Assembly (NCBI GenBank): GCA_965208125.1 | Contig: OZ242320.1 | Span: forward strand, 896,001 to 960,000 | Direction of reading: 5' to 3' | DNA length: 64,000 nt | Source: Candidatus Latescibacterota bacterium | GTDB lineage: Bacteria; Latescibacterota; UBA2968 | In this document: one piece after another, positions 7,829 through 15,899 of the stretch | Layout: each line of letters starts with the position of its first letter | Numbering within the stretch: position 1 is the stretch's first letter | The notes under the pieces: generated by a model | Database searches by the model: none | Told to the model about the DNA's origin: nothing | The model's input: the letters and a program-made list of their open reading frames with translations, nothing else | Translations under genes and position numbers: made by a program

Positions 7829-10468
7829 TTAAACATTACCAATTTTTTCTATCAACTGCTGTCGTACATCCTTCCCATCGACGTTCATCTCAGCGATGAT
7901 AAACAGCCCTTTACCATCACTCGTCCGCTCCCAAAGGGCACCAATAGTCCGCTTCTCGGCGGTATCGGCTCCTTCAGCAATATGTGCACCCTTGTATTCG
8001 ACGATAAAAAGACGTTCATCCTCCAACTGTGCGACAAAGTCCGGGTAGAATTTATCCGTCGCAGTCGGCAGAAAAAACGACTCCGAATGACGCGCTACAT
8101 TGCGAATCCAGTACTTCACTCCTGCCAGACTGTCGATGATCTGAGCACACTGCGCTTCCTCACCATCTTCGGCACTATCAAAAGCGGGCACGCGATCCGG
8201 ACCTAAAAAATGCTTGCGCGGCTTCCAGCGCCCGCGATAGTATCGTTGATCCTGGTACATCCCATCCTTGAAAGTGAAGGCAGCATCGAATGAAACAGAG
8301 GCTTTAGACCCGGGCGCAAAGAGATATCGCTGATATACACTTTCCCGTTCCTCTCGACGAATGTCATTGATCTTATTCTCAATTTTGTTGGCAAGCAGAA
8401 ATTTGCAACGCATCAGCGCAGAGATGGACATGCCGCGTGCCTTGAGCAAATGATCGACCAGTTCGCGTAGCCATTTGAGCAGTTCGCTCTGGTGAATATC
8501 TACCTGTCGCACCTGCCGGTCGAGCCACAGGACAAGTGCCTCTGGCGTCCACCCTTCCGCGGCAATATCCAGAATCAATTGCTCATCTTCACTGGCAAAC
8601 TGATAGGTGACGCGCTTGCCTTCAATGTCAATCTCAAAACTGCGGGCCGTCTCTCGGATCGTGAACTCATCTTCGTCCATCTTCGGGGAATAATTGAGCA
8701 GCGACCAATCGTGGTATTCCATAAAAATGTCCGTATCGGCAAATTCCAGCGTGCCCTGGATAACCGACATCAGACGCGGAATCTCGAATTTCTCCCCTTG
8801 TTCAGCAGGCGATACTTGATCCTTGACCTCGTTGCGATATTTCGCAACAGCATCGGCAAAATCTTTTCTCTGCGGTTCGGGCAAAGTTTCACAAATCGTC
8901 TTCTCATCGTCCTGACTGATCCAGCCCGTAACCGCGATCTCAACCTCTCCTTCAGTTGTTTCGCGCACCAGCAGTCCATCTTGCCCTACCCCTTCAAGCT
9001 TGGACAAAACTTCTGGCGTCGCCGGGATCTTGTATCTTAATACCGGCTCTGACTTCTGGCGCGGGCCAAACAAATCACCCTGATCGTCGAACGCACGCTG
9101 AACTGGCTCAATATTATCGAGGGCCTCATCTTCCTCAAAGCCCATACCCACCAATTTATCAGTAAGCCCTCGCGCAGCCTCTCCAAAGGATGGTTCAGAT
9201 AGGAATGCATACGCTTTGTTTAGATCGGCAACCCCACGCCGTTTGGCATAAGGCATCCGAAGCACGCGACCGAGAAGTTGCTCCACATCTTTCGCACTTT
9301 GAATGCGCGACACAGAGCAGAAAACATAAGCAAATGAGCAGTCCCACCCCTCTTTCAGCGCCTCAACCGTAATGATGTATTCGATAGGACAAGAGCGGTC
9401 AAACAGATCAATACCATCGAGTTCGCGCTGGTTACCAGTGGCAATGGCGATCTTGTCTTCCGGAATCTGTTCCACTTCCATCAAATGATCTTTCAGTGCT
9501 GCGACCGTCACCTCCTGATTTCGTGGCTGCGCCTGAAACAACACAATGGGACGGATATAGTCGGCATCGTCGCTCGCAGTCTCTGCAAGAGAAGCACAAG
9601 CGGCAATAGCACCGTTCACCGCATTTTGCCATGTATCGTGCTCGGAAAGCATAATAGGCAACTTGATCATCTCTTCGCGCTTCAACTCCTGCGCCGTAAC
9701 ACTGTGCAAAATATTTGACCTGCGCCGCGGCGTAGCCGTGAACTCGACAATCGCGCACGGCTTCACCCGCGCCTGCATCTCCCGGGTCAAGCCTGTAACC
9801 GCGTTGTGCGCCTCATCCACAATCATCAGTGGGCGGTGGATATGGAGCAAGTTGGCAAAAGAAAACTTGACGCCACCCTGTTCCAGTTTCTCCAGCCCTG
9901 GGGCATTGTCCAGGACATTGGAGAAATGCGGCTCCATCTCCTCATTGTGTGCATAAACCTTGCGTCCCTCAGTACTCCTCACCCTCAGCGTTTGAATCGT
10001 ACCGACCACAATGCAGCAATGATCGCGGATATCGTGCGGTCGGATATGCGTGAAATCCGCAATATCGAACACCCGCACCCGACCATCAAAAGCCTCGTCC
10101 AACACCTGTCGATACGCATGGCGAGCAGTCTTCAATGCCTCAACCGTTTGCTGGCGAATGGTATTCGTCGGCACCAGCCAGAGCACCACAGGATAATCCT
10201 TCTCAATCCATGCATTACGGGCGACAGATACGGCATGTGCAGCGAGAATCGTCTTACCCCCACCCGTGGGCAGGCGCAAACAAACATAGGGCACATCAAA
10301 CAATTCTTTTAACGGCACATAAGCACCAGCATAGCCCCCAAGCCGCATTGCCTGCTCTGGCTCTTGCGTGATCGCCTCGTACGCATTCTTTGGCCCAGCC
10401 ATCCGCGCCTCCTCAAAGAAGCGACGCAGAATAGACAGCGTATCGGTCTGGTATTGCTTTAAGTTCAT
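7829..10468 (-). CDS. res: type III restriction enzyme Res subunit (SF2 helicase + PD-(D/E)xK nuclease)
   Basis: LPTGGGKT, VDEAH, EGWDC, QLLGRVLR, C-terminal YPDF..VEYKG; near a type III Mod gene. Confidence 0.9.
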   Translation of the reverse strand: MNLKQYQTDTLSILRRFFEEARMAGPKNAYEAITQEPEQAMRLGGYAGAYVPLKELFDVPYVCLRLPTGGGKTILAAHAVSVARNAWIEKDYPVVLWLVPTNTIRQQTVEALKTARHAYRQVLDEAFDGRVRVFDIADFTHIRPHDIRDHCCIVVGTIQTLRVRSTEGRKVYAHNEEMEPHFSNVLDNAPGLEKLEQGGVKFSFANLLHIHRPLMIVDEAHNAVTGLTREMQARVKPCAIVEFTATPRRRSNILHSVTAQELKREEMIKLPIMLSEHDTWQNAVNGAIAACASLAETASDDADYIRPIVLFQAQPRNQEVTVAALKDHLMEVEQIPEDKIAIATGNQRELDGIDLFDRSCPIEYIITVEALKEGWDCSFAYVFCSVSRIQSAKDVEQLLGRVLRMPYAKRRGVADLNKAYAFLSEPSFGEAARGLTDKLVGMGFEEDEALDNIEPVQRAFDDQGDLFGPRQKSEPVLRYKIPATPEVLSKLEGVGQDGLLVRETTEGEVEIAVTGWISQDDEKTICETLPEPQRKDFADAVAKYRNEVKDQVSPAEQGEKFEIPRLMSVIQGTLEFADTDIFMEYHDWSLLNYSPKMDEDEFTIRETARSFEIDIEGKRVTYQFASEDEQLILDIAAEGWTPEALVLWLDRQVRQVDIHQSELLKWLRELVDHLLKARGMSISALMRCKFLLANKIENKINDIRREERESVYQRYLFAPGSKASVSFDAAFTFKDGMYQDQRYYRGRWKPRKHFLGPDRVPAFDSAEDGEEAQCAQIIDSLAGVKYWIRNVARHSESFFLPTATDKFYPDFVAQLEDERLFIVEYKGAHIAEGADTAEKRTIGALWERTSDGKGLFIIAEMNVDGKDVRQQLIEKIGNV

Positions 10469-10579
10469 AACACGTCTGCTCGATAATGGTTCGGATATTC
10501 TTTGATTTGTCACAAATTACATCTGAAAAAGCACAGGTGAAACTCAAGCGTTTATACCACGAATAATCATTGAAATCGT

Positions 10580-15700: not shown

Positions 15701-15899
15701 GGCCTGGATTATTGGTTGCAAAAATGCTTCTCTTCCACTCCCATATACATTTTTCGGCAGAGGGAATACCAGAACTAACAGAAGCACCTGCGCCAAGGAA
15801 AAGTGCGTGCTGCGTATCCCGGTTCACACCAACTGAACGAATGAAAGCATCAAGTGGGAGGATTATATCTTCCTGTTTTTTAGCGATATTGGGTGTCAT
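12720..15899 (-). CDS. SIR2-(APAZ)-short prokaryotic Argonaute fusion (single-chain SPARSA type)
   Basis: N-terminal SIR2 motifs FLGAGAS..SGIP, WTTNFD, LHGDY, IGYSGRD; MID HDFVK..TQ..YVK; PIWI FVGLGF, VLHK, PVRRGT, EILGLSKMNWN, P.T, ending DYRLFI; catalytic aspartates absent. Confidence 0.92.
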   Translation of the reverse strand: MTPNIAKKQEDIILPLDAFIRSVGVNRDTQHALFLGAGASVSSGIPSAEKCIWEWKRSIFATNNPGLEEQFSELSLPSVQSRIQEWLDQQGRFPSAGSTDEYEFYIEHCYPIMENRRAYFQDRIRSAKPHVGYRLLSHLAQGDIMRSVWTTNFDGFATRTAADFNLTTIEVGIDCQDRLHRIPSKGELVCVSLHGDYRYDSLKNTQEELQTQETELREALIRELRNTPMIVIGYSGRDQSVMEVFKTAYTGQGLGTLYWCGYGDGEIPEHIADLVRHARANKRQAFYVPAQGFDDLMTRLALHCLDSEARQAAQNDLSQMASRDLLDRKPFRIAAQQISTLIKSNAFEIDCPTEVFQFDMKVWPKERVWSWLREQTCNHHVVAVPLRGKVLAIGLIDDMREIFDDNIKGDIQRTPVEPEEFRYEDGAIVSLTREALVSAIADAAGIKTDGRRELWLSRSVKTIQQGGIKCIAYQSMLLFIRRIGNRQYLVLKPSIKVLDTNGEQVPHQIANSIKLDILGWQHNGPFNQAINEWRNKLFPNRGQNLFEYPTNYGSTFKFKVYRSPIFAKISRAGGSSLTISQSMRPLLKHQGVELPEPPLVFSNRSASGQIKDIHPIKGVVNNRPYDFALTQRGLAPSVRLGVICPHIETSKLHAYLAQAHGRHRPAQNEQDYLIEYPSFQQAYGLPLDIPTPGTAGWVTCPEPRETHPRRGAVEVARLINDSIQTLQSSYAPQVVLIFFPDRWSQLRGYSDEDERFDVHDFVKAFCVQRGVATQFLNQDTLSGRQQCRVWWWLSLALYVKSMRTPWVLDNLSDDTAFVGLGFSIDRTASPHQHVILGCSHIYSARGEGLQYRLSKVENPIMRGRNPFMSKDDARRVGETIRELFYEAHSKLPNRVVLHKRTPFRREEREGLLDGLGNVGQIDMLEIQIDNALRYVASQTDRYGKIDEDNYPVRRGTAVQLDDYTALLWVHGATTAVNPRLKYFQGKRRIPAPLTIRRHVGQTDLKQICEEILGLSKMNWNTFDLYTKAPATLHSSNEIARIGSLLQRFGATSYDYRLFI

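Follow-up and report, generated by a model that had tools for sequence, protein, structure and literature searches.

Where a gene for a prokaryotic Argonaute (pAgo) lies directly upstream of a restriction-modification (R-M) system, the question arises whether the two defences act together or share only a chromosomal address. Such an arrangement is found in a 64,000-nt stretch of contig OZ242320.1 (hereafter the window, whose positions are used for all coordinates), in which a fused SIR2-Argonaute gene is followed by the mod and res genes of a type III R-M system, all core genes being on the minus strand. The window's own genome (G000) is a single 5.75-Mb contig, and the closest relatives of its pAgo were labelled Candidatus Latescibacterota. 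An earlier note on this DNA had proposed that the layout could provide layered immunity, or that Res/Mod activity could supply targets or triggers to the Argonaute. The comparisons presented here indicate that the locus is most probably a chromosomal defence island with two mechanistically independent systems, an intact single-chain SPARSA-A and a conventional type III R-M, their functional independence being argued from the patterns of presence and absence among relatives. Genomes of the collection are designated G, fetched loci L and public sequencing runs X, each followed by a number. The core features are as follows:

12720..15899, minus strand: single-chain SIR2-APAZ-MID-PIWI short Argonaute (assigned to SPARSA-A, clade S1A), 1059 aa, ATG start (PADLOC, PDB, homologues)
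14973..15818, minus strand: SIR2 NADase domain, pAgo residues 28-309, with N152/D154/H194 (PDB alignment, Pfam SIR2_2)
12726..14123, minus strand: MID-PIWI module, pAgo residues 593-1058, with the putative H759-K763-Q774-K800 pocket and an intact C-terminus (alignment to 8in8_C)
12654..12719, minus strand: spacer of 66 bp from the pAgo stop to the Mod ATG (open reading frame (ORF) map)
11100..12653, minus strand: type III methyltransferase Mod, 517 aa (PADLOC MTase_III, Pfam N6_N4_Mtase, motifs)
10580..11044, minus strand: DUF6979 ORF, 154 aa, in the variable Mod-Res gap (Pfam PF22399)
7829..10513, minus strand: type III restriction subunit Res, 894 aa, GTG start (PADLOC REase_III, Pfam ResIII, motifs)

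The fused Argonaute and the type III genes

The Argonaute was recognized over practically its whole length by the PADLOC PDLC02384 'pAgo' model (residues 12-1059 aligned to positions 3-1030 of 1030, 1391 bits) and at full length by the Aga_SIR2-PNTD1-PNTD2 model (683 bits), and its N-terminal part matched Pfam SIR2_2 with 45 bits. Moreover, phmmer searches against the PDB aligned residues 28-309 to the Sir2-APAZ chain of the SPARSA complex 8in8 and related entries (4e-31) and residues 593-1058 to the short-pAgo chain of the same set (9e-48), which means that one protein matched both chains of the solved complex; no significant PDB sequence match was returned by phmmer for the APAZ linker, at about residues 310-590. 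The family is large, with 1475 proteins at E<=1e-20 among 8000 candidates scored and a top identity of 93%.

The residues expected of an active NADase are in place. The SIR2 domain carries TTNFD (N152, D154) and LHGD (H194), three residues that were invariant across 23 homologues, and both motifs aligned to their counterparts in the solved Sir2 chain, TTNFD and IHGD, the His of the latter, counted as H186, being reported as a catalytic residue (PMC11452484). In the same way, H759, K763, Q774 and K800 were present in the window protein and invariant in the 23 homologues, aligned at 62-84% identity; judged by the motif spacing and by the alignment to the solved chain, they probably form an HK-type MID pocket for the 5′-phosphate of the guide. 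The conserved C-terminus is retained. Family membership, a Pfam Piwi score of 21.2 bits, under its cut-off of 28.9, and a motif reading in which the Asp positions are replaced together suggest that the PIWI domain is inactive, and Koopal et al. (2022) describe all short pAgos as being without the DEDX tetrad.

With SIR2, APAZ, MID and PIWI on one chain, together with the SIR2 N/D/H residues and the MID pocket, the protein is best placed in SPARSA-A. It shares with the SPARSA-A of Joostella marina (JomSIR2-APAZ-Ago; Koopal et al. 2022) the four domains on a single polypeptide, and its SIR2 N/D/H and MID H-K-Q-K residues are intact; it differs by its occurrence in Latescibacterota inside a pentapeptide-Mod-Res unit. 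Both chains of the split SPARSA GsSir2/Ago (Geobacter-type, S1B; 8in8, 8jkz, 8k87, 8y7z) are matched, and the catalytic His aligns with H186, whereas in the window pAgo these chains are fused through the linker that gave no PDB match. The locus thus provides, from an uncultured phylum, a further S1A SPARSA in a well-preserved state.

For the split SPARSA, one report describes a guide RNA, a single-stranded DNA (ssDNA) target, tetramerisation and the alignment of the SIR2 His for NADase activity (PMC11452484). By analogy with it, and given the family membership and the intact residues, the window pAgo would load a guide RNA by its 5′-phosphate in the HK-type MID pocket, recognise complementary invader ssDNA and then oligomerise, the solved split complex being a tetramer. 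This tetramerisation would align the catalytic His of SIR2 for NAD+ hydrolysis, and the depletion of NAD+ would lead to abortive infection through cell death or dormancy. For its part, Mod would methylate host sites, and Res acting with Mod would cut unmodified invader DNA.

The type III genes were equally well supported by family models. Residues 1-516 of Mod aligned to positions 1-542 of PADLOC MTase_III PDLC03644 (638 bits), Pfam N6_N4_Mtase scored 164 bits, and the motif order was DPPY at residue 67 followed by FxGxG at 331. Residues 16-890 of Res aligned to positions 2-893 of PADLOC REase_III PDLC03650 (615 bits); the protein matched Pfam ResIII and carries GGGKT at 84, DEAH at 233 and a C-terminal PD...EYK at about 820-841. 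The 154-aa ORF placed between them belongs to Pfam DUF6979 (PF22399, 31.7 bits against a cut-off of 27), and its Atlas neighbours were DUF6979 clusters. The Mod architecture, a Res with a superfamily 2 (SF2) ATPase and a PD-(D/E)xK motif, and the co-directional pair with DUF6979 interposed are what is expected of a type III R-M system. The classical systems of the EcoP15I/EcoP1I type likewise have mod upstream of res, a beta-class amino-methyltransferase with DPPY before FxGxG, and a Res combining SF2 and PD-(D/E)xK; in contrast, in the window a DUF6979 ORF separates mod from res, and in this phylum a gene for a membrane pentapeptide protein precedes mod. Three plasmid homologues (Res 41-52% identical) consisted of a plain Mod-Res pair with no upstream pentapeptide gene annotated, in a small sample with incomplete gene tables.

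The earlier note had described a 1059-aa single-chain SIR2-short pAgo with intact TTNFD and LHG motifs and an HK-type MID pocket, ending 66 bp before mod and co-directional with mod, a small ORF and res. This observation was confirmed in each detail that could be checked.

Gain and loss of each module at one chromosomal site

The two modules are unequally distributed. Res orthologues (E<=1e-30) were found in 39 of the 168 genomes of the phylum and, by the same threshold, in 12 of the 20 other genomes of the genus; a close fused pAgo was found in only five of the 168 (G000, G079, G144, G059 and, in truncated form, G146), three further genomes of the phylum holding distant split SIR2-APAZ and pAgo pairs. 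In seven same-genus genomes Res was 91-92% identical to that of the window, and no pAgo match was obtained at E<=1e-30. These counts argue against the functional coupling of Argonaute and R-M raised by the earlier note.

Mapping of the window's proteins onto 20 Res-bearing loci, taken from genomes of the same phylum, revealed a recurrent unit in related Latescibacterota made of a pentapeptide-repeat protein, Mod and Res. The pentapeptide gene was directly upstream of Mod, with a gap of 2-25 bp, in 15 of the 20 loci, and the pAgo was in none of them. In the window, a small ORF (orf89) and the pAgo separate the pentapeptide gene from Mod. The genes concerned, with the two conserved borders of the island, are:

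16407..17900, minus strand: pentapeptide-repeat protein, 497 aa, with two N-terminal hydrophobic segments (Pfam Pentapeptide, 139 bits)
16052..16321, minus strand: orf89, small conserved ORF between the pentapeptide gene and pAgo (conserved copies; matched by neither Pfam nor PADLOC)
19885..21102, minus strand: helix-turn-helix (HTH) plus M78 peptidase protein, PADLOC RmrA-like / CapP-like, left end of the variable island (Pfam, PADLOC)
7202..7486, minus strand: 94-aa ORF with a weak ribbon-helix-helix (RHH) match, conserved right flank of the island (Pfam RHH_1, E=0.009, sub-cut-off)

Since the recurrent unit is devoid of pAgo, the Argonaute has been inserted into, or is rarely retained in, an older unit; it does not travel with the R-M system. 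The earlier note had overlooked this architecture. The adjacency would therefore have arisen when orf89 and the pAgo entered, or were kept in, a variable slot just upstream of Mod, in a unit that would also gather other cargo between Mod and Res. No direct or inverted repeats flanking the pAgo were found as an insertion mark.

In genomes of the same genus, the unit occupies the same chromosomal site as in the window. One flank is formed by Na/Ca-exchanger, NmrA/DUF2867 and PhyH genes, often with the HTH-M78 gene, and the other by the small RHH-like ORF, an epimerase and an UvrA-like gene; the 94-aa RHH-like ORF follows Res in the same-genus genomes. The nearest relative of the window pAgo (90-93% identical, its gene split over two contig ends) is found at this very site in G079, of the same genus, where the order is pentapeptide gene, orf89 and pAgo, followed directly by the RHH ORF, the epimerase and the UvrA-like gene. 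At the DNA level, G079 and the window are homologous across the pAgo and into the spacer, of whose 66 bases 62 are shared, up to position 12658; after a stretch of about 58 unrelated bases, the homology returns at 7492, before the RHH ORF. Exactly Mod-DUF6979-Res is thus missing, and the spacer that precedes Mod is retained, which indicates that the R-M system was lost from a pAgo-Mod-Res ancestor and that the pAgo was kept.

Other arrangements complete this picture. In G059 (L011), of the same phylum, a pAgo 64% identical to that of the window has other neighbours and no R-M beside it. In G146 (L022) the pAgo is cut to residues 1 to about 325, and Mod and Res are intact. Public contigs provided further junctions: in run X1, at a depth of 139, position 7498 is joined to 16051, leaving neither pAgo nor R-M; in run X6, at the weak depth of 4, 12653 is joined to 16535, giving a pentapeptide-Mod arrangement without the pAgo; and in runs X1 and X20, the latter an RNA run, 10499 is joined to 11099, giving Mod-Res without DUF6979. 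Hence, close relatives exhibit all four states at one chromosomal site, namely pAgo plus R-M, R-M only, pAgo only and neither, each module being freely gained and lost there. These four states argue that the fused SPARSA and the type III R-M are self-sufficient modules sharing an island. The locus constitutes a natural experiment and cautions against inferring function from a single adjacency. As for layered immunity, it stands only in the general sense that two self-sufficient systems coexist in one island.

The truncation in G146 has produced an 833-aa in-frame SIR2-Mod chimera (L022:9995-12496), in which the SIR2 catalytic motifs are kept and APAZ-MID-PIWI is lost. In a search of 5.8 billion proteins, the only one among the best 120 of 7998 matches to have both Pfam domains was the G146 query itself, and the chimera appears to be a one-off deletion product.

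The site is also variable in its smaller parts. Copies of orf89 with 82-88% identity precede the pAgo in L013 and L080, and precede the pentapeptide gene, where there is no pAgo, in L085 and L086. The 300-bp spacer that separates Res from the RHH ORF is enclosed by a 19-nt inverted repeat (7494-7512 / 7813-7831; 89% complementary), and a contig in run X5 skips 7542-7804; together with the G079 deletion, which ends at 7492, this skip indicates that the spacer is polymorphic for insertions and deletions. The pentapeptide protein diverges fast, being only 46-72% identical to the window copy in same-genus loci whose Res is 91-92% identical, and it had no PADLOC match. Over 14 loci, no covariation of pentapeptide and Mod alleles was detected beyond relatedness (partial r = 0.03, 91 pairs). 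A full-text literature search, with few subscription journals in its coverage, returned no paper describing a pentapeptide-type III link.

Across related loci, the gap between Mod and Res is a variable cargo slot, measuring 15 bp or less in 11 of the 20 loci. The DUF6979 ORF was missing from all 23 related R-M loci. The slot of L022 (12490-14348) holds a GmrSD/HEC-05 gene, and those of L092, L093 and L097 hold an HD-domain protein and a 177-180-aa ORF, the latter with a weak DarG-like match in L093. An opposite-strand ORF of about 320-350 aa, or its remnants, fills the slot in L081-L083, L085 and L086; it is Rpn/transposase-like by reading of the sequence and matched by neither Pfam nor PADLOC. 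Moreover, Mod alleles swap across lineages, as in L082 and L087, whose Res are 81% identical and whose Mods are 90% identical; the Mod genes of L084 and L097 are further examples, and records labelled Gemmatimonadetes, Microvirga, Sagittula and others contain Mods 73-84% identical to that of G146. Such exchange fits the shuffling of type III specificity domains.

Proposed coupling between the Argonaute and R-M

The earlier note had suggested a neighbourhood analysis of homologues, looking for enrichment beside type III R-M. In the comparison made here, 75 loci were kept of 489 confirmed stretches in the genome collection, 66 of them with one or both flanks of 4.5 kb or more, and 80 loci came from the metagenome collection, 37 of them with such a flank. 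Detection relied on tblastn with two Mod/Res subfamilies and on PADLOC applied to 27 chosen neighbours. An adjacent type III R-M was found in six of the 155 loci (5/75 genome, 1/80 metagenome), a count that could miss a third, unrelated type III subfamily, the flanks holding 364 ORFs of at least 350 aa. Compared across homologues, the signal was therefore weak, and a functional link is disfavoured by it as it is by the nearest pAgo, which lacks Mod-DUF6979-Res at the same site. To the extent that genome comparison can tell, this is the outcome that the earlier note had named as refuting the coupling, and the proposed link is most probably simple island clustering.

The six loci are of two kinds. 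The Mod/Res subfamily of the window follows the pAgo in L006, L013 (G144) and L022 (G146), all from Latescibacterota. A different subfamily (MTase_III PDLC03634, REase_III PDLC03647) occurs in the order Mod-Res-pAgo in L008 (Roseitalea), with a 12-bp gap, and in L051, an actinobacterial metagenome-assembled genome, with a 17-bp gap; the only metagenome locus with an adjacent type III system, L176, is of the L008 type, its Res being 95.6% identical. In a FastTree phylogeny of 68 pAgos, whose support values are SH-like only, the R-M-linked proteins fell at three separate places: the Latescibacterota trio, L008, and L051 in a distant clade. Where L008 has Res, its close sister L024 has an OLD-like ATPase.

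R-M genes near fused pAgos are already on record. Table S3 of Ryazansky et al. (2018) lists 58 same-strand 'operons' of SIR2-APAZ-fused pAgos, of which 14 contain orthogroups 21 or 34, the assignment to pAgo group being drawn from that table alone, and the text of that paper names these orthogroups 'restriction endonuclease of type III'. Eleven of the 14 also carry orthogroup 11 (HsdS), which suggests that most members of orthogroups 21 and 34 are type I HsdR proteins bearing the Pfam 'ResIII' helicase name; in that table and text, type III is not singled out. In our genome collection, a type I HsdM cluster occurred within 10 kb of the pAgo in seven of the 75 loci, and directly beside it in L043 and L122. 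The signal of type III adjacency is thus weak, and it does not exceed that of the type I adjacency tabulated in 2018. A functional link between pAgo and type III R-M was described by no paper returned in our literature search.

Several observations weigh against complete independence. Adjacency to type III R-M arose in three pAgo lineages, always co-directionally and with gaps of 12-117 bp, and it involves two R-M subfamilies and both orders, pAgo-Mod-Res as in the window and Mod-Res-pAgo in L008, L176 and L051. Such tight juxtapositions exceed what a random gene would show, and do not clearly exceed what a defence-island gene would show. The pAgo-Mod junction is kept in four genomes from at least two families (the window, G144/L013, L006 and G146/L022), whose pAgos are 71-84% identical, implying that it has persisted or spread as a block. 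Between the pentapeptide gene and Res, a consensus scan revealed no terminator-like site in any intergenic gap, so that an operon is possible. Finally, the two systems may interact conditionally when both are present, whatever the presence/absence patterns.

Among the alternatives, expression coupling alone survives best, and we consider it a reasonable possibility with somewhat less than an even chance. Under it, pAgo, Mod, DUF6979 and Res, perhaps with the pentapeptide gene and orf89, would form one transcript from which the two systems act independently, an arrangement compatible with the independence favoured here, because co-transcription would couple expression and not mechanisms. All these genes are co-directional, the gaps from the pentapeptide gene through orf89, pAgo, Mod and DUF6979 to Res being 85, 152, 66, 55 and 66 bp, and a terminator-like site, lacking in the gaps, appears after the RHH ORF. 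In relatives, the pentapeptide stop and the Mod start are 2-3 bp apart, and a 1601-nt metatranscriptome contig from one of them covers the junction of the Mod 3′ end with the Res 5′ end, with DNA carry-over possible. However, the scans used a sigma-70/E. coli-style consensus uncalibrated for this phylum, and their yield barely exceeded that of shuffled sequences: promoter-like sites numbered 28, compared with 18.4±4.1 after shuffling, and terminator-like sites 19, compared with 15.0±3.9. Between lineages, the pAgo-Mod spacer shows poor conservation, and the RNA run X20, represented by contigs only, gave no cover over the pAgo, which makes it uninformative on pAgo expression.

A bolder view, which we regard as unlikely, would treat the Latescibacterota R-M operon as a two-slot scaffold in which abortive-type effectors are nested and co-expressed; at least some of this cargo, the Argonaute-NADase included, would be held in check or set off according to the state of the R-M complex. 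The slot upstream of Mod may then take up the membrane pentapeptide protein, orf89 and SPARSA, and the Mod-Res slot may take up DUF6979, GmrSD/HEC-05, an HD protein with a DarG-like ORF, or Rpn-like elements; the recurrence beside pAgos of Res and of the helicase PDC-S28, described below, would reflect a real SF2-ATPase partnership.

A guard-type coupling considered by itself is very unlikely. The model for it is the anticodon nuclease PrrC, which is embedded in the EcoprrI type Ic R-M cassette and depends on its R-M partner. In the same manner, the R-M complex would restrain or arm the Argonaute-NADase, and phage anti-restriction or failed restriction would release it as an abortive back-up, so that guarding of the PrrC type would apply to type III R-M as well. 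The window pAgo shares with PrrC the nesting of an abortive-type effector gene in an R-M gene cluster, as it lies inside the pentapeptide-Mod-Res unit and not beside it; the conserved pAgo-Mod junction and the recurrence in three lineages would also fit, as would the other abortive-type or nuclease cargo in the same operon of relatives (GmrSD/HEC-05 in L022, HD with a weak DarG-like ORF in L092, L093 and L097). Nevertheless, the obligate co-occurrence of effector and R-M seen for PrrC does not extend to this locus, where each module occurs alone at the same site: G079, having lost precisely the R-M system, has kept an apparently intact pAgo, most relatives have R-M without pAgo, and in 149 of the 155 homologue loci a type III R-M next to the pAgo is lacking. 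Furthermore, Koopal et al. (2022) give the APAZ protein as the sole specific associate of short pAgos, suggesting stand-alone systems, and the legend of their Figure S7D reports a drop of NAD in E. coli upon expression of a fused S1A protein by itself.

Other Argonaute contexts and island neighbours

In one well-supported S1A clade, whose members are 53-56% identical to the window pAgo, a helicase of about 870 aa, PDC-S28 (DEAD/ResIII/Helicase_C_2, DinG/Cas3-like), is encoded immediately upstream of the Argonaute, with stop and start overlapping or nearly abutting. The loci are:

Genome collection, 10 of 75, one clade: L037 (7320-9995), L039, L040, L042, L043, L044, L046, L049, L059, L062
Metagenome collection, 4 of 80: L131, L134, L135, L153

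In L041 and L045, shorter ORFs match the C-terminal part of PDC-S28. No description of the PDC-S28-pAgo pairing was found in the same literature search, and the pairing sits oddly with the statement of Koopal et al. (2022), cited above, that short pAgos have no specific partner beyond APAZ proteins.

It is very unlikely that S1A pAgos repeatedly recruit an SF2 ATPase which exposes or delivers ssDNA to them, Res in three lineages and PDC-S28 in another clade. PDC-S28 in its 14 loci and Res in L008, L176 and L051 (12-17 bp away) do occupy the same position upstream of the pAgo. However, Res lies two genes downstream in the window's lineage, type III Res enzymes are sliding switches triggered by ATP and do not unwind DNA as helicases do, L024, the sister of L008, has an OLD-like ATPase in that position, and the pAgo survives the loss of Res in G079. 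An R-M-guarded or helicase-assisted SPARSA, if real, would provide the first specific partner of short pAgos beyond APAZ effectors. The pentapeptide-Mod-Res unit, the Mod-Res cargo slot and the PDC-S28-pAgo operon are perhaps more productive leads than the adjacency of pAgo and R-M itself.

Another partner gene was observed in an alphaproteobacterial subclade of fused pAgos, in which a protein of about 280 aa, PDC-S32, with an AbiJ N-terminal domain 4, is encoded directly after the pAgo, overlapping it or within a few bases. It is found at L020:13153-13974, L024:13131-13973, L106:6367-7146 and L176:11336-12166.

Two further genes belong to the island around the window's systems:

18611..19705, minus strand: AAA_21/AAA_15 ATPase, PDC-M25A / HEC-01A-like, island neighbour (Pfam, PADLOC)
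17967..18629, plus strand: orf220, 220 aa, convergent with the ATPase and overlapping its end (without a family match)

The AAA_21 ATPase is conserved in L013, L022 and several same-genus loci, and the convergent ATPase/orf220 pair is kept in L013 and L080. In L006, an HTH-M78 gene is placed directly upstream of the pAgo. Moreover, G000 carries a second short-pAgo system elsewhere (C1:2606000-2624000; L181:5805-10596, minus strand), a SPARDA-like pair formed by a REase-APAZ protein of 465 aa and a short pAgo of 543 aa, with another HTH-M78 (RmrA-like) gene and a PDC-S70-like ORF downstream of it.

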